From: a virus
Taxonomy: Duplodnaviria > Caudoviricetes
Strand: one strand, 5' to 3'
IMG/VR virus record: IMGVR_UViG_3300022752_000013
DNA length: 64,000 nucleotides
Positions 4,317 through 40,635 of this stretch are shown here, in pieces (the stretch's first letter is position 1; each line of letters opens with the position of its first letter). The translations under genes and the position numbers were made by a program. The notes below the pieces were generated by a model. That model was given only the letters and a program-made list of their open reading frames with translations. It was not told the DNA's origin and ran no database searches.

Positions 4317-5128
4317 TCTTGCATCATCCTAAATGCTGTGCCATTTCTCAGTTCTTTCACATGATACTGTCCGTAGGCCATACTGTGACACCAAGCATCT
4401 ATTAGATCTTGATCGGCCCAAACAGGATCTTCAATACTATCCAATGTAGTGTTGGCCACTGGTGCTGCCACATGTGTTGGTGCTAGTACAAATGCAGGCA
4501 CCCCTGCAAATATACTTTCCACTGCGGCCACACTGTTGAATGTGACCAAGGCATGTACGTCATTGGCCAGTGCCTGACTCAATGGTGCAGTAGCGACTCT
4601 ATCTATACGTTTGTGCGCACGTTGTCGAACTTCCACTGGGCGGTCTGTGAGTTGTTTTATTTTTGCCACAGTATCTTTGACCCATTGTTGTTGATCAATT
4701 CCGTAAAATCTACAAGGTTTTTCGTCAGGTGCCGCTACTATGATTTTTCGTCCATGACGTCTTGGTTGCAATGTGATTCCTAACTTAGACCATCGATCTG
4801 CAGGACGTGGTTGAATCTCTTTGTGCTGTAAATCATTTTTTACTATTCTGTGATAGACTTTGATACCACGAGGATTGGTAGCAGTTGCATTGTTGCCTGC
4901 ATAGCCCGAATCTACATACCAAAAGTCATGATTGCCTTCCCAGCACCGGTGCATGATTTTGTGTTTGAGAATACCGCGTAGCACTAATTTTTTCTGATCC
5001 ACTTCAACATCATAATGAAAGTCAAAATAGTCACTGTCAGTGGGGTCGGCGCCAGCACTTTGAGCCAACATGTTGATGTATTCATCTTGATTGTTTTTGC
5101 TCAGAAATAACCAATTTTGATTTGTCAT
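4313..5128 (-). CDS. Capsule polysaccharide biosynthesis (KpsS-like) protein, paralog
   Basis: YVDSGY, VTFNSVAAVESIFAGVPAFV. Confidence 0.6.
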   Translation of the reverse strand: MTNQNWLFLSKNNQDEYINMLAQSAGADPTDSDYFDFHYDVEVDQKKLVLRGILKHKIMHRCWEGNHDFWYVDSGYAGNNATATNPRGIKVYHRIVKNDLQHKEIQPRPADRWSKLGITLQPRRHGRKIIVAAPDEKPCRFYGIDQQQWVKDTVAKIKQLTDRPVEVRQRAHKRIDRVATAPLSQALANDVHALVTFNSVAAVESIFAGVPAFVLAPTHVAAPVANTTLDSIEDPVWADQDLIDAWCHSMAYGQYHVKELRNGTAFRMMQE

Positions 5129-5138
5129 AATGTATTTG

Positions 5139-5693
5139 TCATTTTTTGGCCATTATGATATATTTTTTAACTATCATAGGTGCTGTCATTGTTGGCTTGT
5201 TTTTAATAACATCAAAATATTCGTCTTTAAGAATAGTATAGCCATGATCTATAAACTTTTGTTTCCACCACTCAGGGGTTTCTTGTATCAAATGTGCGTT
5301 TCTTCCATCGGCCAAAATCAACTTAGCAGGACTCAATGCAATCAAATGATAGATGTATTTGCTTTTAGTTGATAGATATGCCAAAGTTTGATCAATAAAT
5401 TCTGGCTCTACATGTTCCAATGCATCTGACGAATAAATTAAATCGTAAACTTTATCATCAATAGAGTAATCAAACTCAGCGTTTGCAGGATCATATCCAG
5501 TTATAGTTTTGTCTGGAAACTGCACTTTTAATGTTTGTATTAGATTGCCTTTGCCGCAACCAAAATCTAAAATGGTTTGTGGATTTTGATCTATGATAAA
5601 ATCAAACAAGTATCGTGGCATCTTGGCACGTTTTCCAAACGATGCTCGACGGTGTTCTCGTTGTAGCATTTTTTTATATCCGTTTGATATCAT
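5139..5693 (-). CDS. Class I SAM-dependent methyltransferase
   Basis: ILDFGCGKG, GYDP, SDALEHVEP; start chosen by ATGA coupling. Confidence 0.85.
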   Translation of the reverse strand: MISNGYKKMLQREHRRASFGKRAKMPRYLFDFIIDQNPQTILDFGCGKGNLIQTLKVQFPDKTITGYDPANAEFDYSIDDKVYDLIYSSDALEHVEPEFIDQTLAYLSTKSKYIYHLIALSPAKLILADGRNAHLIQETPEWWKQKFIDHGYTILKDEYFDVIKNKPTMTAPMIVKKYIIMAKK

Positions 5694-6370
5694 GTTCGTT
5701 GTAAACAGTAGTCGGCCAACATGTGCTCGCGATGCCATTCTTCGCTCTGTGGCGTTGTAGCAAACTCATGAAAGCAGGGAGTTCCTAGAGTATAATGCAA
5801 TAACTTAGCGTTGGAATTTGGTCCATACTCGTCTGGTAACCAGTTCCATTCTTTTGGCAACTCGCCAATGCGGTCATCTTCTAACCATGTAAATCGATGT
5901 AGTTCTGCACCTGTTGCTTTTTGTACATACTGTGGCACTAGTTTGCGATTGGGAAAACTATTACAATTCCATAAAATAACACTGGACCAATTTTTTCGAG
6001 GATAATTTTCATTTGGTGATCCTAAATATTTTTCTGTCATTCGAGTTTGATAATCATGTTTAACAACCATTACATCTTTGTCTAGTTCTCTTAATTCCCA
6101 AAGTTTTGCAACATCGTCACGCACAATCATGTCACCGTCTATAAAGATGGCCCAACCTGTAAATTGCATCAAGTGCGGCACAAGAAATCTACTGTAGATA
6201 AACTGATTTGACCCGTCGGTGTGTGTCTCTGTGTAGTCTTCAAACAAGTTCAAGGCCAATGGAATGATAGCAACAGGTTTTGAAGCATGCCGTATGATTG
6301 AGTTGGCACAGGTATGATATGCCACTGCTTCTCTTGGATCATACCCAACAAAGATCGGAATTGGTGTCAT
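5690..6370 (-). CDS. GT8-like glycosyltransferase
   Basis: IFVGYDPRE, YSRFLVP, FIDGDM, RKNWSSV, HYTLGTP. Confidence 0.8.
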   Translation of the reverse strand: MTPIPIFVGYDPREAVAYHTCANSIIRHASKPVAIIPLALNLFEDYTETHTDGSNQFIYSRFLVPHLMQFTGWAIFIDGDMIVRDDVAKLWELRELDKDVMVVKHDYQTRMTEKYLGSPNENYPRKNWSSVILWNCNSFPNRKLVPQYVQKATGAELHRFTWLEDDRIGELPKEWNWLPDEYGPNSNAKLLHYTLGTPCFHEFATTPQSEEWHREHMLADYCLQRT

Positions 6371-7125
6371 CGACGTTCTATGTCCTCTTCCACACAGTCC
6401 TCGCCGTACTGTATCTCAATCAGTCTGAGTGGATGATCGGTTTCGTTGCACAGTTGATGCCACTCGTTGAGTTTTATCCAGGTACTTTGATGTTGTGCTG
6501 GACTGGCCAATAGATCTCGATCAGTCGAATGTGGGTCTACAGTGTATACAGTGGCTTCTCCTTCGGCCACAAACCAGAATTCAGCACGTTTTTCGTGACG
6601 TTGCATGCTTAGGCATGTTTTGGGTGCAACCGTTAGTTCTTTGAGTTTGGTATGATTGCCTACTTCGTGTAGCACACGATAGTAGCCCCAGGCACGGTCA
6701 GTTCGAGGTTTCTTCCAGTTTTCAAGAATCCAACTACTGGAGTTGGCTTTGTTGTTGCCACCAACACCAAACACAAATTCCACATCATTAAACACCATTT
6801 CGGGAATGTTGTCCGATGTGCGATCGCCGCCATTGGCAAACACAATCTCATCATCGGGGTACTTGGCTCGTGTCTGACGAATAGCATCACAAGCAGTATC
6901 GTCGCCGTCATCAAATGCAATCACTTCGTCAACCATGTGTAGATTGTCCAGTATGGTCATTCTTTCACGCCATGACATAAACGGTCGGCCTTTTTTGCGT
7001 GTGAGCCACTCATCTGAGTTTAGACCCACAACCACGTGATCACCTAGGTGATCGGCATGATTGAGCAAAGAGATGTGTCCAGAATGTAGTGGATCAAATC
7101 CACCGGTTAATATAACAATTTTCAT
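6367..7125 (-). CDS. Cytidylyltransferase fused to mannose-6-phosphate-isomerase-like cupin
   Basis: TGGFDPLHSGH (HIGH), FANGGDR; C-terminal RAWGYY..LSMQRHEKRAEFW..IEIQYG. Confidence 0.9.
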   Translation of the reverse strand: MKIVILTGGFDPLHSGHISLLNHADHLGDHVVVGLNSDEWLTRKKGRPFMSWRERMTILDNLHMVDEVIAFDDGDDTACDAIRQTRAKYPDDEIVFANGGDRTSDNIPEMVFNDVEFVFGVGGNNKANSSSWILENWKKPRTDRAWGYYRVLHEVGNHTKLKELTVAPKTCLSMQRHEKRAEFWFVAEGEATVYTVDPHSTDRDLLASPAQHQSTWIKLNEWHQLCNETDHPLRLIEIQYGEDCVEEDIERR

Positions 7126-30853: not shown

Positions 30854-30985
30854 ATGAAACTGCGTAAATTAAGAGACAAATTATATCATGCCATCTTCAA
30901 ACATGATAGTGCTAAAGAAAAAAAAGTTTGGTTCAAGATCCTTAAAAAATCTACCAAACACAAACACACTGAGGACATACGATAA
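30854..30985 (+). CDS. Small basic protein (43 aa)
   Basis: Read by hand; SD GGAGG; MKLRKLRDKLYHAIF...; TAATG coupled to iscU. Confidence 0.6.
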   Translation: MKLRKLRDKLYHAIFKHDSAKEKKVWFKILKKSTKHKHTEDIR

Positions 30986-31368
30986 TGGCATATTCAGATC
31001 GAGTGATTGATCACTACGAAAATCCACGTAACGTGGGTAAATTTGAAATTGACGATACCGTTGGTACCGGCATGGTTGGTGCGCCTGCTTGCGGTGACGT
31101 AATGAAGTTGCAGATAAAAGTAACAGATGGGATTATCACAGATGCAAGATTCAAAACATATGGATGTGGAAGCGCAATCGCGAGTTCTAGCCTCGTTACG
31201 GAATGGGTCAAAGGTCGTACACTTGAAGAAGCAGGATCCATTCGAAATAGCCAAATTGCTGAAGAACTTGCTCTTCCACCAGTCAAAATCCACTGTTCCA
31301 TCTTGGCCGAAGACGCCATCAAAGCCGCAGTAGCAGACTATCGCAAAAAGCATGATCTCGTTCACTGA
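30985..31368 (+). CDS. iscU: Fe-S cluster scaffold IscU
   Basis: YSDRVIDHYENPRNVG, APACGD, GCGSAIAS, LPPVKIHCS. Confidence 0.95.
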   Translation: MAYSDRVIDHYENPRNVGKFEIDDTVGTGMVGAPACGDVMKLQIKVTDGIITDARFKTYGCGSAIASSSLVTEWVKGRTLEEAGSIRNSQIAEELALPPVKIHCSILAEDAIKAAVADYRKKHDLVH

Positions 31369-31675
31369 TACAGCACGGAACAAAATACAAAAGTTAGTTA
31401 CAACCAAAAACTATGCTGGTATTCGTCTTGGGGTTAAAACCACAGGTTGCTCCGGGCTTGCTTATGTGTTAGAGTATGTTCGAGAATACACATCGGAACA
31501 GTATGTTATCAATTATGCACAGCCAGAATTTGTTGTGCTAGTAAATCAAAAAGACAACGTGTATCTTCAAAACATGACAGTAGACTATGTGCGCCAGGGT
31601 CTTAACGAAGGCTTTGAATTCTCAAACCCCAATGAGCGTGACCGTTGCGGTTGCGGAGAAAGTTTTCGAATATAG
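31352..31675 (+). CDS. iscA: Fe-S cluster assembly accessory protein IscA
   Basis: GCSGLAY, CGCGESF. Confidence 0.93.
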   Translation: MISFTDTARNKIQKLVTTKNYAGIRLGVKTTGCSGLAYVLEYVREYTSEQYVINYAQPEFVVLVNQKDNVYLQNMTVDYVRQGLNEGFEFSNPNERDRCGCGESFRI

Positions 31676-32451: not shown

Positions 32452-33012
32452 GTGGCAATTGTACAAGTATCTCGAATCACAAATCGTAAAGGTCTAGCAG
32501 AAAATGTGCCGCAACTGGCCGGCGCAGAACTTGGCTGGGCCATCGATGAACGTAGACTGTTTATCGGCAACGGCACCCTGCAAGAAGGCGCCCCTGTCAT
32601 TGGCAACACAGAAGTGCTCACTGAGTACTCAGACGTGTTCACTGGTCGCACACAGTTTTCGTTTGGCAACTATGTTGTAAATGCAGGAACCACTGCAACC
32701 TTGGCCAACAATGCCACCACAGAAACGGTGTTTACCATTGACGCCAGCACAATTCCAGCGTTTGAAGTAAAATACATGATACGCCGGGGCGTTTTTACTA
32801 GAACCGGCACATACATTGTTGTAGGCAGTACAGATGGTTCTGGTAGTCTGCCAACCCCAGTGGATGCTAATCCTTTACAAAACGGATCTACCGGCGTCAC
32901 CTTCACAGTGACTGAAAGCGCCAGCACTATTACATTTGCTTACTCCAGCACCAACACAGGTGTAACTGGAACTCTTTATTATTCTATCAGTTACTTTTTA
33001 CCTACAGTTTGA
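32452..33012 (+). CDS. Virion structural protein
   Basis: GTG start MAIVQVSRITNRKG, GELGW..D..RLFIG motif; late promoter. Confidence 0.6.
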   Translation: MAIVQVSRITNRKGLAENVPQLAGAELGWAIDERRLFIGNGTLQEGAPVIGNTEVLTEYSDVFTGRTQFSFGNYVVNAGTTATLANNATTETVFTIDASTIPAFEVKYMIRRGVFTRTGTYIVVGSTDGSGSLPTPVDANPLQNGSTGVTFTVTESASTITFAYSSTNTGVTGTLYYSISYFLPTV

Positions 33013-33437
33013 TGTGGCCGCTTACATTTGAACAGCGCCTACATGCGTGGGGCGCTCTTCGCGAAACAGTACAACACGCACCGGTTGAACAAGTCCTTAC
33101 CGAAGTCAATACCTGGTGGTTTCAAGCACCTTGGCGAGCATATCATTTGCACTGGGATGATCGGCCAAACTGGCCAGATCCTTGGGAACTTTTAAGCGAT
33201 AATATCTATTGTGATCTTGCTCGCGGGCTGGGAATCCTGTATACTATAACTCTGCTGGATCGTGCTGATCTGCAGGATTCAATATTGGCGGAATCAGATC
33301 AGGGCAATTTAGTCCTGGCACAGCAAGGGAAATATATATTGAATTGGGACTCGCAACAAGTGTTAAATATCAATCCAGGGCAGATCAAGGCCCAGCACAG
33401 CATAACGCAAGAACAAATACAACAACAAATCGGATAA
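33012..33437 (+). CDS. Conserved hypothetical protein
   Basis: WPDPWEL....YC..ARGLG motif. Confidence 0.7.
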   Translation: MWPLTFEQRLHAWGALRETVQHAPVEQVLTEVNTWWFQAPWRAYHLHWDDRPNWPDPWELLSDNIYCDLARGLGILYTITLLDRADLQDSILAESDQGNLVLAQQGKYILNWDSQQVLNINPGQIKAQHSITQEQIQQQIG

Positions 33438-33439
33438 CA

Positions 33440-34915
33440 ATGAAGCAAATTATAGTACAAAAACGCAGTGGTAGCCGCGAGCCACTTGCATTGGAAAAAT
33501 GGCAAGCACAAATAGCCAAGGTTTGTGCAGGCATAGCGGATGTCAGTCAAAGCATGATTGAGATCAAAGCCCAGTTGCATTTTTATGATGGCATCACAAC
33601 CAAAGAAATCGACGGCATCACACTCAGAGCCATAGTGGACCTGATTGACGTAGAATCAAACCCTGATGTGGGCCACACCAACTATCAGTTTGTGGCAGGC
33701 AAGCAACGACTATCAATGTTGCGTAAAGATGTATACGGTTCATACGATCCTCCTCACCTGTATGAGATTGTGAAGCGGAATGTGGCCACTGGCCTGTACA
33801 CTCCTGAACTCCTGGAATGGTACTCAGAGGAAGACTGGAATCGCATGGAAGACATGATTGATCATGTGAAGGACGAACAGTATTCATATGCGGCAGTGGA
33901 ACAACTGATTGAAAAGTATCTGGTCAAGAATCGTTCAACAAAAGAAATTTACGAAACACCACAAGTGCGTTACATGATTGCGGCTGCCACGGTGTTCCAC
34001 ACGGAAGAACCCAACACAGCCCGTATGCGTTACATAAAGGAATACTACAATGCCGCAAGTGATGGATTATTTACCCTTGCTACTCCCGTCCTTGCTGGTC
34101 TCGGTACCCCTACTAAGCAATTCAGTTCGTGCGTACTCATTAGGAGTGATGATGACCTGGATAGTATTTTTGCTAGTGGTGAAATGATGGCCAAGTATGC
34201 CAGCAAACGTGCTGGCATTGGCTTAGAAATTGGACGACTACGTCCACTAGGGTCGCCCATACGTGGCGGCGAAATCATGCACACCGGCATGATACCATTT
34301 TTAAAGAAGTGGTTCGGCGACTTACGCTCATGCTCACAAGGAGGTATTCGCAATGCAAGTGCTACTGTATTTTATCCCATTTGGCATCATCAGTTTGATG
34401 ATCTTATTGTTCTTAAGAACAATCAAGGAACCGAAGAAACCCGAGTCCGGCACATGGATTATGGGGTTGTGCTTAGTGCTTTCTTCTGGAGACGATTTAA
34501 AAACAAAGAAAACATAACATTCTTTGATCCCAACCAGGTACCTGATCTGTATGAAGCGTTCTATGCCAACACTGAACGTTTTGAAAAACTTTATGTCGAG
34601 TATGAAAAGCGTCGAGACCTGCGTACCAAGACCATGAGCGCGGAAGAAGTGTTCAAGTCAGGCATACTCAAAGAGCGCACTGACACCGGTCGCATCTATC
34701 TAGTGTTCATTGACAACGTTCAGAATCAAGGTCCGTTTGATACTGAGTACCATACCATTTATCAGAGTAACTTATGCCTGGAGATTTTGCTCCCAACAAA
34801 ATCTTTCAAGCGAATGAATCCTGAACGCAAGTTGATTAGAGTTAAAAAGTCCAATGTTAATGAGTTTATGAAAACTAAACCCACAGACATAGTTAAAATT
34901 AGGAAAATAAAATAG
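33440..34915 (+). CDS. nrdA: Class Ia ribonucleotide reductase alpha subunit, N-terminal fragment (NrdA-a)
   Basis: ATP cone, QFSSC, SNLCLE active-site loop; then a non-RNR basic tail and stop. Confidence 0.93.
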   Translation: MKQIIVQKRSGSREPLALEKWQAQIAKVCAGIADVSQSMIEIKAQLHFYDGITTKEIDGITLRAIVDLIDVESNPDVGHTNYQFVAGKQRLSMLRKDVYGSYDPPHLYEIVKRNVATGLYTPELLEWYSEEDWNRMEDMIDHVKDEQYSYAAVEQLIEKYLVKNRSTKEIYETPQVRYMIAAATVFHTEEPNTARMRYIKEYYNAASDGLFTLATPVLAGLGTPTKQFSSCVLIRSDDDLDSIFASGEMMAKYASKRAGIGLEIGRLRPLGSPIRGGEIMHTGMIPFLKKWFGDLRSCSQGGIRNASATVFYPIWHHQFDDLIVLKNNQGTEETRVRHMDYGVVLSAFFWRRFKNKENITFFDPNQVPDLYEAFYANTERFEKLYVEYEKRRDLRTKTMSAEEVFKSGILKERTDTGRIYLVFIDNVQNQGPFDTEYHTIYQSNLCLEILLPTKSFKRMNPERKLIRVKKSNVNEFMKTKPTDIVKIRKIK

Positions 34916-34944
34916 TAGGTAATAGTATTACAAGGTAGAACATT

Positions 34945-35316
34945 ATGAACAAAAATATAAGAGATTACATCAACTTAATAGAAACCGCCCAGCAAGGTGT
35001 GGCCGAAGGCTTGAACGAATTTGCACCAGATGGATTTAACGGTGGCAATGACGGCGAAGAGTTTAGTCCGGAAATCGCCAAGATGGCACAAGAAGATGGC
35101 TTTACAAAAGGTGCGAGTCTTGCTGACGGTGCAACATTAGAACGAGCAATTACTATTAACCACTGGCACGACCAACACGGTGGTATGTATAAACAATACT
35201 TTGCTAAAGGCTTCAAACAAGGTCGTATGAATAAAATCCGTCACGACAATAAACAATATAATCTCAACTTGAAGTTGATGAAAGACGGTAGCATTAGACG
35301 TGGAGAACAGAAATGA
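34945..35316 (+). CDS. Hypothetical protein inside split nrdA (putative head-packaged protein)
   Basis: INLIE, QGVAEG, LNEFAP motifs. Confidence 0.7.
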   Translation: MNKNIRDYINLIETAQQGVAEGLNEFAPDGFNGGNDGEEFSPEIAKMAQEDGFTKGASLADGATLERAITINHWHDQHGGMYKQYFAKGFKQGRMNKIRHDNKQYNLNLKLMKDGSIRRGEQK

Positions 35317-35516
35317 ACGAACAAGTTAAAATACTTTGGGCTAAGGCAGCCGAATCAAACTTTGGCGATAGTTGGGAAGAACAAACTGCCTTTATGTCTA
35401 AGTTCGCCGAGTTGATTGTGAGAGAATGTGCCGATATTGCTAATGCTGGTATTGATCCTGCTGAATCACATTTGATCGGCGATGATATTTTAAAACATTT
35501 CGGAGTTGAAGAATGA
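35313..35516 (+). CDS. Small hypothetical protein inside split nrdA
   Basis: KFAELIVRECA...LKHFGVEE; ATGA-coupled at both ends. Confidence 0.75.
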   Translation: MNEQVKILWAKAAESNFGDSWEEQTAFMSKFAELIVRECADIANAGIDPAESHLIGDDILKHFGVEE

Positions 35517-36532
35517 ACAAATTATATGAAGAAATAGAATGTCTACCGGAAGAACTGGATGATGAATACGAATACTACGAGATTGACGAAGCAGAGGGTA
35601 GAATCGCCCTGTGTACGCTGGGAAGTATTAACTGGGGTGCATTCAGGAATCCTGAAGACATGCGCCGTGCTTGTAGAATTCTGCAGAGATCCTTGTGTAA
35701 TATTCTTGACTACCAAGACTTCCTGTCAATCCAATCGCAGTTATCAAATGACGAAATCCAGCCGCTTGGTATCGGTCTTACTAACTTGGCTTACTGGCAT
35801 GCCAAGCGCGGACTCCAATATGGTAACAAGGACGCTTTGGCCGAAGTCAAGTCGTGGATGGAACATCAGGCTTTCTACCTTACCGAAGCCACAGTTGAAC
35901 TTGCTAAAGAGCGGGGCCGTTGCAAAGATTCGGACCGCACCTGGTACGGTCGTGGTATCTTTCCCTGGGAACGACGGGCCAAAGGAGTCAATGAACTCAC
36001 GGACTTCTCTCCTGAACTGAACTGGGAAAGCCTACGTGCTGACATGCGAGCATATGGTGTGCGCAATGCCACACTGATGGCTATTGCTCCTGTTGAAAGT
36101 TCTAGCGTGGTAATCAACTCAACCAACGGCATTGAAATGCCAATGAGTTTAATATCAGTTAAGGAATCAAAAGCAGGAAGCCTTACGCAGGTTGTGCCTG
36201 AGTACCACAAGTTGAAAAACAAATATCAAATGATGTGGGCACAAAAGGACTGTGATGGTTATTTGAAAACAGCGGCTGTGTTAGCGGCCTATGTTGATCA
36301 ATCAATCTCAACCAACACATTCTACAACCCAGCACACTTTGCAGATCGTAAAGTTCCCACAACATTGATTGCTAAAAATCTAATGCAGGCACACCATTGG
36401 GGGATTAAGACCTTCTATTATAGCCTTGTGAATAAGCAAGGATCAAAATCTACAGATGAAACCGCTCCTAATACGCCACTTGAACAGATCGACTTTGATG
36501 ACGAAGATTCCTGCGAAAGTTGTAAACTTTGA
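35513..36532 (+). CDS. nrdA: Class Ia ribonucleotide reductase alpha subunit, C-terminal fragment (NrdA-b)
   Basis: Acidic leader then EGRIALCTL, APVESSS, DQSIS, KTFYY, terminal CESC. Confidence 0.93.
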   Translation: MNKLYEEIECLPEELDDEYEYYEIDEAEGRIALCTLGSINWGAFRNPEDMRRACRILQRSLCNILDYQDFLSIQSQLSNDEIQPLGIGLTNLAYWHAKRGLQYGNKDALAEVKSWMEHQAFYLTEATVELAKERGRCKDSDRTWYGRGIFPWERRAKGVNELTDFSPELNWESLRADMRAYGVRNATLMAIAPVESSSVVINSTNGIEMPMSLISVKESKAGSLTQVVPEYHKLKNKYQMMWAQKDCDGYLKTAAVLAAYVDQSISTNTFYNPAHFADRKVPTTLIAKNLMQAHHWGIKTFYYSLVNKQGSKSTDETAPNTPLEQIDFDDEDSCESCKL

Positions 36533-36577
36533 TTAGTAAATAATAGTATTATTATTGTCTATTAGATAAATAATAGT

Positions 36578-37324
36578 ATGAATTACAAAAAACACTACGA
36601 TATGTTAATTGAAAGAAGCCGCACTAGAACTCTTACAGGATATGTTGAAAAGCATCATATTATTCCTAAGTGCCTGGGCGGTTCTGACGATAAAGATAAC
36701 ATTGCAGTATTAACACCAGAAGAACATTTTTTAGCACATCAACTATTAGTTAAGATATATCCTAATAGTCCTCCTTTAATAAACGCCGCGGTTATAATGA
36801 CAACTCATCATACTGAATCTAGAGCAAATAATAAATTATTTGGTTGGTTGAGACGCCGAGCATCCGAATACAGAAAAGAGTGGTTGCTAGAGAATGGACA
36901 TCCTAAGGGAATGTTAGGAAAGCATCACAAACTTGAAAACATTAACAAGATTACATCAGGTATAAAACAGAAAGCAGTTGAAAAGAGAATAGAAGTATAC
37001 ACATACAATCTAGATGGGTCTTTTTATAAAAAATATGATTCCTTAATAGAATGTGCTCAGGACTTAAAAACAAATGCATCAAATGTAAAGTATACAGCAG
37101 AAGGAAACTTTGGTCATTGTAAACAAAAACAAATAAGATATGAGTTTTTTGAAAATATAGAGCCATATGTTAAACCATCTCCTCTTAAAGGTAAAAAGAA
37201 AACTGAAGAACACAAATTAAATCAAAGCAAAGCAATGAAAGGTCGTACTCGCAGTGATGAGTGGAAAGCGGCACATAGTAATGCAATGAAGAAATACCAC
37301 GCAGAGAAAACGGAAACAGTATGA
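36578..37324 (+). mobile_element. mobE: Free-standing MobE-like HNH homing endonuclease with NUMOD-like C-terminal motifs
   Basis: MNYKKHY..LI, EKHHIIPKCLGG.D...N...LTPEEH..AH; located between nrdA and nrdB. Confidence 0.85.
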
Positions 37325-37518
37325 ACAGTGTAGAAAAGATCTGGGCTCGGGCCACCGGGCATCTAATGGGTGAGAGTGATCATGACCGTCCAGATGTGCC
37401 TATATTAACCTTGAGAGAAGCCCGAATAGCCTTGTTTTTCAAAACATTTTGGGTTATAATACATGTTATAACCTGCGGTTTCATTATAGCCAACACAATT
37501 AGACACTGGAACAATTAA
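37321..37518 (+). CDS. Small membrane protein
   Basis: WARATGHLMG...one TM segment...NTIRHW. Confidence 0.7.
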   Translation: MNSVEKIWARATGHLMGESDHDRPDVPILTLREARIALFFKTFWVIIHVITCGFIIANTIRHWNN

Positions 37519-38139
37519 ATGTTAGAAACCTGTTGTGATATATTAGTCGATGCGTACAAACGCAATTGGATAACCAGTAGAGATGGCAACATCTCTATTC
37601 GTCATCACGACCGTGATCACTTCTATATCACACCGTCGGGTGTGCGTAAGCAGACAATGCAACCGGATCAATTCAAGAAGATCGGTATTCACGGACTGTT
37701 GTGGCAAGAAGAATATTATACTGATATCAGTGCTAATCTAAAACCCAGTGGAGAGATTCCGTTGCACTTTGGCCTACAACGAGCAATGGGGCAACACAAG
37801 GATGATGTGCGGGTAGTAGTGCATGTGCATCCGACCTATTGCATCGCGGCCATGCATGCTGGTATTGATTTGAGCACTATTAGCGATAGTTTTCCAGAAC
37901 TCAATCGTTACACACGAGTAGCACCCAATGTGGGAGATGTGGCACCTATCAGTCAAGAACTTGCTGATGCGTGTCATCGTAATCTGGGATTAGACCCAGC
38001 AGGCAATATCAAATTTGATATTGTGGGTATCAAGGGGCATGGAGTAGTGGCCATTGATGTCACACCATGGCGTGCCTATGAGCACATTGAAAGATTAGAA
38101 CACATTTGCAAGATAGTACTTGCATCAGGAAAATATTAA
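37519..38139 (+). CDS. Class II aldolase/adducin-family protein
   Basis: DGNISIR, ITPSG, SGEIPLH, HVHP, GHGVV. Confidence 0.9.
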   Translation: MLETCCDILVDAYKRNWITSRDGNISIRHHDRDHFYITPSGVRKQTMQPDQFKKIGIHGLLWQEEYYTDISANLKPSGEIPLHFGLQRAMGQHKDDVRVVVHVHPTYCIAAMHAGIDLSTISDSFPELNRYTRVAPNVGDVAPISQELADACHRNLGLDPAGNIKFDIVGIKGHGVVAIDVTPWRAYEHIERLEHICKIVLASGKY

Positions 38140-38140
38140 A

Positions 38141-39243
38141 ATGAGTCGAGCACAATACAATTTAAAAACAAAAACAGATTATCTCAATCGCAAGATGTTT
38201 CTTGACCCAGCAGGTCCAGTGACAGTTCAACGATTTGAAGAAGTCAAGTACAACAAATTGGTCAAGTACGAGCAAGAAGCACGTGGCTTCTTTTGGGTAC
38301 CAGAAGAAATTTCACTGACCAAAGACGCACAAGATTTTAAAGATGCCTCAGATACTGTCAAGCATATCTTTACATCAAACTTGTTACGTCAAACTGCACT
38401 GGACAGTTTGCAAGGACGTGGTCCTAGCCAAATCTTTACACCTGTTGTTTCAATTCCCGAACTTGAAGCCCTGGTCTACAACTGGACATTCTTTGAAACC
38501 AATATCCACTCACGTAGTTACAGTCACATCATTCGCAACATCTACAACGTGCCCAAGGATGTGTTCAACACAATCCACGACACACAAGAAATTATTGATA
38601 TGGCTAGCAGTGTGGGCAATCATTACGATGCATTGCATGTGATCAACTGTCGTAAGGAAGCAGGCGAAATAATTACAGAGAATGAACACATCCGAGCAAT
38701 CTGGTTGGCACTCAATGCCAGTTACGCACTAGAAGCATTCCGTTTCATGGTATCATTTGCCACAAGCCTGGCCATGGTAGAGAATCGTATCTTTATTGGC
38801 AATGGCAATATTATTCAATTGATCCTGCAAGATGAAGTGCTACACAAAGAGTGGACTGGTTGGTTGATCAATCAAGTGGTCAAAGAAGATGCTCGCTTTG
38901 CAGAGATTAAGGCCGAATGCGAAGGCGAAGTATATCAAATGTACCTGGATGTGATCCGTGAAGAAAAAGCCTGGGCTGACTACTTGTTCAACAAAGGTCC
39001 TGTAATTGGTCTCAATGCAAACATTCTCAAAGACTTTGTGGACTTCACTGCATTCAATGCACTCAAAGAAATCGGAATCAAGTATACTGAAGAACATCCA
39101 CGCTCCACCCCCATACCTTGGTTTACAAGCACGTGGACACCAGTAAGAAACAAACTGCACTGCAAGAGAACGAATCAACTAACTATGTTATCGGAGTTAT
39201 GAGTGACAGCATTGACTACGACGAATTACCAGAACTATCTTAA
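38141..39243 (+). CDS. nrdB: Class Ia ribonucleotide reductase beta subunit; apparent 1-nt deletion near 39125
   Basis: FFWVPEE, ETNIHSRSY, LEAFRF, QDEVLH; canonical tail continues in shifted frame to TAA at 39241-39243. Confidence 0.9.
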
Positions 39244-39251
39244 GGAAAAAT

Positions 39252-39482
39252 ATGAAAGCAATTGTATGGTCAAAGAATCACTGCCCTTACTGCGATCAAG
39301 CCAAGAACTTGCTCAAATTAAAAGGCATTGAATATGAAGAACGCAACATCAATGATGGTTGGGACAAAGAGGATTTGTTGGCGGCTGTGCCAGGTGCAAG
39401 AACAGTGCCACAGATCTTTCTGGATGAGCAACTGATTGGTGGCTTCACTGAATTGCGTAAACATTTTAGCACTGAGGATTAA
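39252..39482 (+). CDS. Glutaredoxin
   Basis: CPYC, TVPQIF, IGGF. Confidence 0.95.
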   Translation: MKAIVWSKNHCPYCDQAKNLLKLKGIEYEERNINDGWDKEDLLAAVPGARTVPQIFLDEQLIGGFTELRKHFSTED

Positions 39483-40079
39483 ATGCCAGAATATACATCA
39501 GATTGGTTTTCCAACACAATTGTAAATTTTGAACACATCAAGGACAATTACAACAACTCATTTGATCGTATCCTGGAAATAGGTTGCCACGAAGGTCGAT
39601 CAACCTGTTGGATGTTACAGAATCTGCTGAGTGATACAGGAACTATCACGTGTGTAGATCCATTTGCCAACCATCATATCAATCCCTTTACTGGCCAAAA
39701 GCCCACTGAGGATCGCACCTGGGAAAATAGATTTAGAGCCAATACTGCCGAAGCCAAACAGCCCGAGCAAACCCTAGACGTTCATGTGGCCTTGAGTTTT
39801 CCTACCTTGGCCAAATTTATTGTAGAGCAACGTGAGTTTGATTTTGTGTACATCGACGGTAATCACTGCTGTGATGCTGTGATGGCAGATGCTGTGATGG
39901 CCTGGAGCCTGCTCAAGCCCGGTGGCTTCATGCTGTTTGATGATTACCTGTTTGAAGACGAACCAGACATACTGGATCGGGGCAAGATTGCCATAGATGC
40001 ATTCTGCACTAGTTTTACTAGACAACTTGATTTTTATTTGATCAACTATCAGTTGGCTGTGCGTAAGAAAAAAATTTAA
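39483..40079 (+). CDS. Class I SAM methyltransferase (Methyltransf_24-like)
   Basis: LEIGCHEGRS, YIDGNH, FDDY. Confidence 0.85.
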   Translation: MPEYTSDWFSNTIVNFEHIKDNYNNSFDRILEIGCHEGRSTCWMLQNLLSDTGTITCVDPFANHHINPFTGQKPTEDRTWENRFRANTAEAKQPEQTLDVHVALSFPTLAKFIVEQREFDFVYIDGNHCCDAVMADAVMAWSLLKPGGFMLFDDYLFEDEPDILDRGKIAIDAFCTSFTRQLDFYLINYQLAVRKKKI

Positions 40080-40091
40080 CAAAGGAAAAAA

Positions 40092-40388
40092 ATGTTACTC
40101 GAAATTGACAAAGGCCTTTCTGAAGGCGACGTGGTCACACTCAAACTCACATCAGGTGAGGAAATTGTAGCACGATTAGACAAAGAAACTGACACACACT
40201 ACAGGCTGACCAAACCCATGGTGATTGCCATGAGCCCAAACGGTCCTGGACTGTTGCCCTACTTGTTTACTGTGAGTCCGGACAAGACCATTGGCCTGAG
40301 CAAAAACACAGTAACCGTGGCCACAACTTCAGACAAGCAGTTTGCAAGTCAGTACATGCAGAGCACAACCAATATACAAATGGTTTAA
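40092..40388 (+). CDS. Conserved hypothetical protein (Sm-like fold, inferred)
   Basis: VTLKLTSGEEIVA. Confidence 0.65.
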   Translation: MLLEIDKGLSEGDVVTLKLTSGEEIVARLDKETDTHYRLTKPMVIAMSPNGPGLLPYLFTVSPDKTIGLSKNTVTVATTSDKQFASQYMQSTTNIQMV

Positions 40389-40419
40389 AACACCGGCTTT
40401 TCTTTTCCATAAATAATCA

Positions 40420-40635
40420 ATGGGACATCGCTTTGTGATCATGCAGGACGACCAGTTGTCGGAATACACAGAGTACGAACAAATTCCAGATCAGTTTGAT
40501 CACGTGATTGAGTTTGCTCCGGAGATTCCACCTGGACCCCATACTGATCAACAGCATGAAGAAATTGATCAGTGGCAGGTCAAGTTTGAAAGATTAATGG
40601 AAATAGAATATGCCAGCAGCCGCGAGAAAGAGTGA
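40420..40635 (+). CDS. Conserved hypothetical protein
   Basis: FDHVIEF.P..PPGPHT..QH. Confidence 0.7.
   Translation: MGHRFVIMQDDQLSEYTEYEQIPDQFDHVIEFAPEIPPGPHTDQQHEEIDQWQVKFERLMEIEYASSREKE

Follow-up and report, generated by a model that had tools for sequence, protein, structure and literature searches.

The 64,000-nucleotide (nt) stretch of a Caudoviricetes genome deposited in IMG/VR as IMGVR_UViG_3300022752_000013, hereafter the window, encodes a ribonucleotide reductase (RNR) whose large-subunit gene, nrdA, is divided between two open reading frames (ORFs). Positions below are those of the whole window, and the nrdA region occupies 33.4-39.5 kb of its plus strand. The genes are arranged in the order nrdA-a, orf123, orf67, nrdA-b, a MobE-like HNH/NUMOD1 endonuclease, orf65, a class II aldolase, nrdB, and a CPYC-containing glutaredoxin (Table 1). 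The two nrdA fragments are translated separately, each ORF having its own start and stop codons, and belong to one operon with nrdB; no terminator-like sites were found on the plus strand between nrdA-a and nrdB. A gap of 597 nt containing two small ORFs separates the fragments. ATGA overlaps join orf123 to orf67 and orf67 to nrdA-b, and the ribosome-binding site (RBS; GGAG, 7 nt upstream of the ATG) and start codon of nrdA-b sit in the last codons of orf67.

The RNR barrel family PF02867 was matched at profile positions 1-222 by NrdA-a and 222-522 by NrdA-b; thus, the cut is clean, with neither loss nor duplication of the profile. It falls between the radical-cysteine finger loop (SNLCLE, with the equivalent of C439) and the IALC strand carrying the redox cysteine C462. 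Alignment to Escherichia coli R1 placed the equivalents of C225, N437, C439, and E441 in NrdA-a and those of C462, Y730/Y731, and the terminal CxxC in NrdA-b; every catalytic residue of class Ia NrdA is therefore kept across the two fragments. The ATP-cone of NrdA-a scores slightly below the Pfam cut-off (24.6 vs 25.8 bits). Where RNR homology ends, NrdA-a continues into a basic C-terminal extension (CTE; KRMNPERK...KIRKIK, with only 3 D/E), and NrdA-b begins with an acidic N-terminal extension (NTE; MNKLYEE...DEAEG, with a single K). The original prediction had described these charged tails, the retained SNLCLE, YY, and terminal CxxC motifs, and a gap holding two unrelated genes and no endonuclease. 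Recounting and the R1 alignment agree with this description, the acidic head before IALC being 29 amino acids (aa) long; yet a MobE-like HNH gene starts 46 nt downstream of nrdA-b.

Table 1. Features of the RNR region (window positions; aa, amino acids; pI, isoelectric point)
Feature	Position	Strand	Description
nrdA-a	33440..34915	+	491 aa; ATP-cone, all-alpha domain, first half of RNR barrel (ORF list, Pfam, alignment)
nrdA-a core	33440-34807	+	C225, N437, C439, E441 equivalents
NrdA-a CTE	34808..34912	+	35 aa, 13 K/R, pI 11.2; homologous to Aeh1, e11/2, and L023 tails
orf123	34945..35316	+	ORF in gap; cargo gene
orf67	35313..35516	+	small viral family (..KFAELIVREC..HFGVEE)
nrdA-b	35513..36532	+	339 aa; second barrel half; C462, Y730/Y731, C-terminal CxxC equivalents
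NrdA-b NTE	35513..35599	+	29 aa, 13 D/E, pI 4.05
MobE-type free-standing HNH/NUMOD1 homing endonuclease	36578..37324	+	canonical nrdA-nrdB position, low GC
nrdB (small subunit)	38141..39243	+	frameshifted in record
Glutaredoxin (CPYC)	39252..39482	+	homologous gene in L168/L169 carries PF00462

The window derives from a lake metagenome. The junctions were checked in Logan contigs of lake sequencing runs, including three studies (runs X2, X3, and X6) other than the probable source of the record. Contigs of all three span both nrdA junctions with 0 differences. Because both are crossed in three independent lake studies, the split is not an artefact, and the misassembly that the original prediction had named as a possible refutation was not borne out in these data. 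The same split allele was recovered from several lakes, also within contigs 120-350 kb long; a search of GenBank for a near-identical phage found none.

The arrangement closely resembles that of Aeromonas phage Aeh1, in which the order is nrdA-a / mobE / nrdA-b (Friedrich et al. 2007, cited in PMC3045599; Crona et al. 2010, PMC3045599). Comparison with intact NrdA (E. coli R1) and, by Pfam profile, with the Aeh1 halves, akin to a check suggested with the original prediction, gave retention of all catalytic residues and the same Pfam position: in Aeh1, PF02867 is divided at 1-221 / 222-522, between the C439 and C462 equivalents. Both systems have a basic CTE and an acidic NTE of similar length and pI (10.4 and 3.8 in Aeh1, where the tails are essential for activity; PMC3045599), a NrdA-b open frame of 339 aa (annotated in Aeh1 as 323 aa), and nrdB downstream. 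Tail similarity was scored against composition-preserving shuffles. The window CTE is significantly similar to that of Aeh1 (z 5.7, p 2.5e-4; ERKLIRVKKSNVNEFMKTKPTDIVK aligned against EKMLFKVKKSEVDKFKLMVATDQYK), and still more to the tails of coliphage e11/2 (z 7.9) and of the IMG/VR relative L023 (z 9.5); the acidic heads have Y..(E/D)DEY motifs in common without reaching significance against such shuffles. Given the shared Pfam position and a homologous basic tail, the window split belongs with the Aeh1 cassette and did not arise independently.

The window differs from Aeh1 in what occupies the gap (an HNH mobE in Aeh1, two small ORFs in the window with the MobE-type gene placed after nrdA-b), in the GIY-YIG endonucleases that window relatives use in the gap, and in lineage, the nearest cultured intact NrdA proteins being those of Xanthomonas phage X1, Ralstonia phage RSP15, and Stenotrophomonas Menderavirus. 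Phage e11/2 (vB_EcoM_112, Tequatrovirus), annotated nrdA-MobE-nrdA-nrdB, has the same split and homologous tails (RLIKIKKSDVAKF..; ..YEDDEYTT..) but, unlike the window, still carries MobE in the gap. Its NTE was found in ~35 of ~1100 T-even-type records, where the split is thus a minority allele too.

Both tails are conserved well beyond the window. With NrdA-b as the query, more than 100 metagenomic proteins were found at 80-93% identity; ~70 of these NrdA-b proteins (335-346 aa) begin with the head MN.LYEEIE[CY]LPEELDDEYEYYE[IV]DE, and the remaining matches are pieces of unsplit NrdA reading ...LPTKPFKRLDDADGRIALC.... The tail-region search yielded 13 NrdA-a proteins of 452-492 aa that carry the basic tail. 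We also considered the tail as an internal insert of intact NrdA and rejected this, the search having given solely split NrdA-a proteins; apparent tail matches in Vibrio and Stenotrophomonas phages arose where the alignment continued into the IALCTL stretch of genes that are intact. Among split alleles, the ratio of nonsynonymous to synonymous substitution rates (dN/dS) of the concatenated CTE and NTE is ~0.04-0.14 wherever dS is estimable, and DNA identity is 62-89% for the CTE and 84-90% for the NTE, compared to 62-79% for the adjoining 300 nt of the catalytic core. The tails are, judging from these ratios, under purifying selection. When anchored at a common FKR(L/M), the CTE also resembles the stretch with which unsplit genes continue beyond the split point (EGRIALCTLGSINWGAFRNPEDM...; anchored z 3.9, second-ranked among ~740 offsets), and on this weak likeness it may derive from a duplication of the target segment that adjoins the cut on its downstream side.

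In the deposited record, nrdB is damaged. One C is missing after 39125 (window 39119-39243: TTTA-CAAGC vs TTTACCAAGC in all relatives), which frameshifts the last ~38 codons and removes the conserved C-terminus (QTALQENESTNYVIG...DELPEL) kept by every relative. The C is present in contigs of all four lake runs, probable source included; its absence most likely reflects an assembly error in the deposited record, and we read nrdB as intact in the real phage. Taken at face value, the frameshift would favor the view that the split allele is a decaying, non-functional nrdA in a phage that relies on host RNR, as would the close relative L017, whose unsplit nrdA (4636-6948) is interrupted in frame by a stop codon (..KDALH*VKTW..), either through sequencing error or as a pseudogene, and which indicates that broken RNR genes occur here. 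We consider such decay very improbable, given that none of the four runs shows the nrdB frameshift in its contigs, that neither nrdA half is interrupted and every catalytic residue is kept, that the tail dN/dS is ~0.1, and that the allele recurs in several lakes and in the long contigs.

Phage RNR genes commonly host introns and inteins, and a single NrdA chain might be restored by group I intron splicing, split-intein trans-splicing, or ribosomal bypass. Such elements do occur among the relatives: in L053 (505-2152) and P0076, nrdA is broken at SNLC|CEI by a true split intein accompanied by a free-standing HNH gene of 311 aa, and in L023 (356-2032), nrdA-a is interrupted at core residue 298/299 by an intein together with a 369-aa ORF. 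With interruptions of three different kinds in a single clade, nrdA is a hot spot for mobile elements. For the window itself, however, restoration of one chain is extremely unlikely. Intron covariance models (Rfam, 33000-40500, E<=1) found no intron, giving one chance lncRNA match elsewhere, and Pfam found no Hint/intein domains in the window fragments, although it detected them in L053 and L023. The tails (35 and 29 aa) have neither an N-junction Cys nor an HN-Cys/Ser/Thr at the C-junction, they are selected as protein, and the gap ORFs are coupled; the 597-nt gap far exceeds the 50 nt bypassed in T4 gene 60; and splicing does not occur in the split RNR of Aeh1 (PMC3045599). The fractured genes with split inteins described by Dassa et al. 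(2009), including nrdA broken around a free-standing GIY-YIG, Vsr-like, or HNH gene (PMC2677866), likewise divide nrdA in two with oppositely charged interface peptides. Unlike the window, they have Hint/intein domains, ligate the chains, and are inserted at the radical Cys, whereas the window tails lie one loop further on. We also compared the C-intein end of L053 (MIKIKKI) with the CTE end (VKIRKIK) and rejected the tails as a degenerate split intein, as the topology is wrong and the catalytic motifs are absent: in inteins the MIKIKKI-type strand follows the endonuclease, whereas the window VKIRKIK strand precedes the endonuclease position.

The gap ORFs had no match in Pfam or PHROGs, no HNH mobE was found between the halves, and Pfam, PHROGs, and ESM Atlas yielded no function for either ORF; paralogues of orf123 or orf67 were not found in the window. 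An orf123 homologue (87.5% identity) occupies the same position in L169-L171. In an RNA search, five lake or marine runs recorded as RNA were considered (5-11% of sampled words), and four were examined (three of those and X20); orf123-related transcripts are present in the lake metatranscriptome contigs. For orf67, which represents a large family of small viral proteins, lake DNA and metatranscriptome contigs contain pieces of both motifs, deeply covered and in many different surroundings. An 11-mer, TAATAGTATTA, follows the nrdA-a stop (34920-34930) and appears twice before the MobE-like gene (36541-36551 and 36571-36581; one copy with one mismatch), a count that, allowing one mismatch, was equalled in 1/100 shuffles; it may be a phage promoter, a regulatory motif, or a footprint of mobile-element ends.

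The IMG/VR relatives form a graded series of alleles. The nearest relatives of the window nrdA are unsplit (L008: 97% and 95% aa identity, with the same synteny); ~10 loci are split, and the split is a minority allele in this clade of uncultured freshwater phages. GIY-YIG homing endonucleases occupy the gaps of L016, L021, L035, L091, L093-L095, and L168. They are of at least two types, one in L016/L168 and one in L091/L094, and L021, L035, L093, and L095 encode a 243-aa relative that has the DNA-binding half in common. In L016 and L168, the endonuclease is accompanied by an orf67-family gene. The gaps of L169-L171 (177-350 kb contigs from another study) contain the orf123 homologue and two orf67 paralogues. 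That of L023 (2608-2652) is a 45-nt spacer left over from the 3' end of orf67 and including the nrdA-b RBS; that of L092 is 7 nt; and in L094, the first 49 nt of orf123 alone remain after its endonuclease. The tails thus appear to outlive the endonuclease, to judge from those relatives whose gap measures 7 nt, consists of the 45-nt relic, or holds the cargo ORFs seen in the window. The original prediction had referred to a presumed founder element, with the mobE insertion of Aeh1 as precedent, and had suggested that the split became fixed independently of it. Persistence in alleles that have no gap endonuclease (L092, L023, and L169-L171) agrees with the latter point, but the Pfam position and CTE homology that the window shares with Aeh1 speak against independence of origin; as to the former, the gap contents of the relatives suggest that the likely resident in the window lineage is a GIY-YIG endonuclease, not MobE.

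In a tree of NrdA-b cores, split alleles are scattered; at least six changes must be assumed, and strong branch support makes two of them unavoidable. The sister of the window is L008, which is unsplit; L091, which is split, has as its sister the nearly identical but unsplit L015. The sequences of L091 and L015 agree up to AAGAGACTGGA, where a sharp breakpoint follows; beyond the insert, silent differences are clustered in the GR(V/I)ALCTLGS codons, followed by identity. This breakpoint pattern is what would be expected of homing with target-site immunity.

A different history for the gap is that the endonuclease-free split is the older state: nrdA would have been split once by some other event, the gap, lying between highly conserved coding stretches, would later have been taken over on separate occasions by HNH endonucleases, GIY-YIG endonucleases, and cargo genes, and the window would never have lost an endonuclease. 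Three unrelated kinds of gap content combined with one conserved tail pair fit this history, as do orf67-family genes both with an endonuclease (L168, L016) and without one (window, L169); the weak CTE likeness to the downstream segment would fit an endonuclease-free origin by duplication. However, most sampled split alleles contain an endonuclease, a deletion series is visible (L094 with its piece of orf123, L023 with its orf67 relic), and the near-identical pair L091/L015 involves an endonuclease-bearing cassette. On balance, we regard an originally endonuclease-free split as unlikely, though far less so than decay of nrdA or restoration of a single chain.

The MobE-like gene downstream of nrdA-b has a G+C content of 32-37% vs ~45% nearby, and its best cultured matches are intergenic nrdA-nrdB endonucleases, e.g., that of phage S16. 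The protein is 100% identical beside unsplit nrdA (L015:1239-1970) and split nrdA (L091:6066-6797), which marks it as a separate element, recently mobile and not tied to the split. The 3' end of the window nrdA-b is more like L091 than other close relatives are, as if co-converted with the endonuclease. Further downstream, one X2 contig joins 37509 to 38149 via 18 other letters, deleting the class II aldolase between nrdA and nrdB, and the presence of the aldolase and orf65 varies among the IMG/VR relatives. The glutaredoxin is a likely reductant for the CxxC tail of NrdA-b. The RNR region is preceded by IscU-like and IscA-like genes at 30985-31675 (ORF list only).

Taken together, the window nrdA is probably an Aeh1-type two-piece RNR large subunit, a mobile CTE-gap-NTE allele from which the endonuclease has gone. 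By homology, we infer that the two-piece enzyme is active. Several observations weigh against this interpretation. Once acidic composition is controlled, the NTE has no significant similarity to the Aeh1 head. The deposited record has a frameshifted nrdB, though contigs of all four runs contradict it. In the four RNA runs, contigs cover orf123-like and orf67-motif pieces without the nrdA junctions. AlphaFold2 modeling of a pseudo-single chain (window 33440-36529, stops read as Gly, P0134; alignment of 126 relatives, in which MAFFT left the fragment tails outside the query tail columns) gave a mean predicted local distance difference test score of 48.8, with ~25 for the tails, too poor for tail pairing. 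Finally, the direction of change can be read either way, as loss of an endonuclease from the window allele or as its never having been present there, and as gain by homing or as recombinational loss of the cassette.

If the window nrdA is such an allele, two polypeptides would be made, with NrdA-b coupled to the upstream small ORFs, and the halves would rebuild one ten-stranded barrel with a shared active site to which NrdA-a contributes the C225 and C439 equivalents and NrdA-b that of C462. The original prediction envisaged a functional gene in pieces held together by an electrostatic zipper. The Aeh1-type architecture and charge-complementary tails fit the first part, but the zipper is overstated: in Aeh1, NrdA-a and NrdA-b bind each other without need for the tails, whereas pairing of the heterodimers, assembly of the holoenzyme, and activity do require them (PMC3045599). 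By this homology, the CTE and NTE would form a conserved adaptor needed for the (a/b)2 large subunit, its dimer interface, and an active holoenzyme with NrdB. A gap-resident endonuclease (GIY-YIG in the freshwater clade; HNH MobE in T-even phages and Aeh1) would cut unsplit alleles, and repair would copy CTE-gap-NTE, spreading the cassette. After decay of the endonuclease, the split would be hard to revert and the gap would stay as a cargo site, leaving the window with its two cargo ORFs. We propose that the split is kept because neither half works alone.

The closest precedent outside RNR is the T4 gp39/gp60 topoisomerase, split by the free-standing MobA with addition of CTE and NTE tails, where the endonuclease can disappear, or a GIY-YIG or VSR enzyme can take its place, and the tails are always retained (bioRxiv 10.1101/2022.08.31.505936). 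As in the window, tails are found on a split essential enzyme and the endonuclease is dispensable; in T4, however, the host gene is another one, the tails are unrelated, and translational bypass occurs, of which there is no sign in the window. In 2010, the Aeh1 RNR was presented as a unique way of coping with a gene broken up by a selfish element (PMC3045599), and reviews and surveys name Aeh1 alone as such a case (PMC3653736, PMC2988022). A 2022 preprint refers to "Aeh1 and several others" with conserved NTE and CTE as "unpublished" (10.1101/2022.08.31.505936), which appears to be the sole mention of the e11/2 split in the literature. In the open-access literature searched, we found no description of Aeh1-type nrdA splits that bear a GIY-YIG gene or have no endonuclease.

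What is new relative to Aeh1 is the gap content, the endonuclease family of the relatives, and the phage lineage. We tentatively suggest, as a possibility with a little less than an even chance, that the basic-CTE/acidic-NTE pair is a portable nrdA-splitting adaptor, independent of any one endonuclease, that has moved between Straboviridae (T-even phages, Aeh1) and uncultured large freshwater phages, has been mobilised by HNH MobE and at least two GIY-YIG types, and leaves a selection-protected landing pad for cargo after endonuclease loss. The tails could be usable as short natural peptides for assembling split enzymes. The relatives provide a natural series (unsplit, endonuclease present, cargo only, relic, and empty gap) that can be used to study how tails rescue a split active site and what gap endonucleases recognise. 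The same tail pair is widespread, as a minority allele in two unrelated phage groups with different endonuclease families, and its apparent persistence after endonuclease loss would amount to the same life cycle as that of MobA and the T4 topoisomerase.

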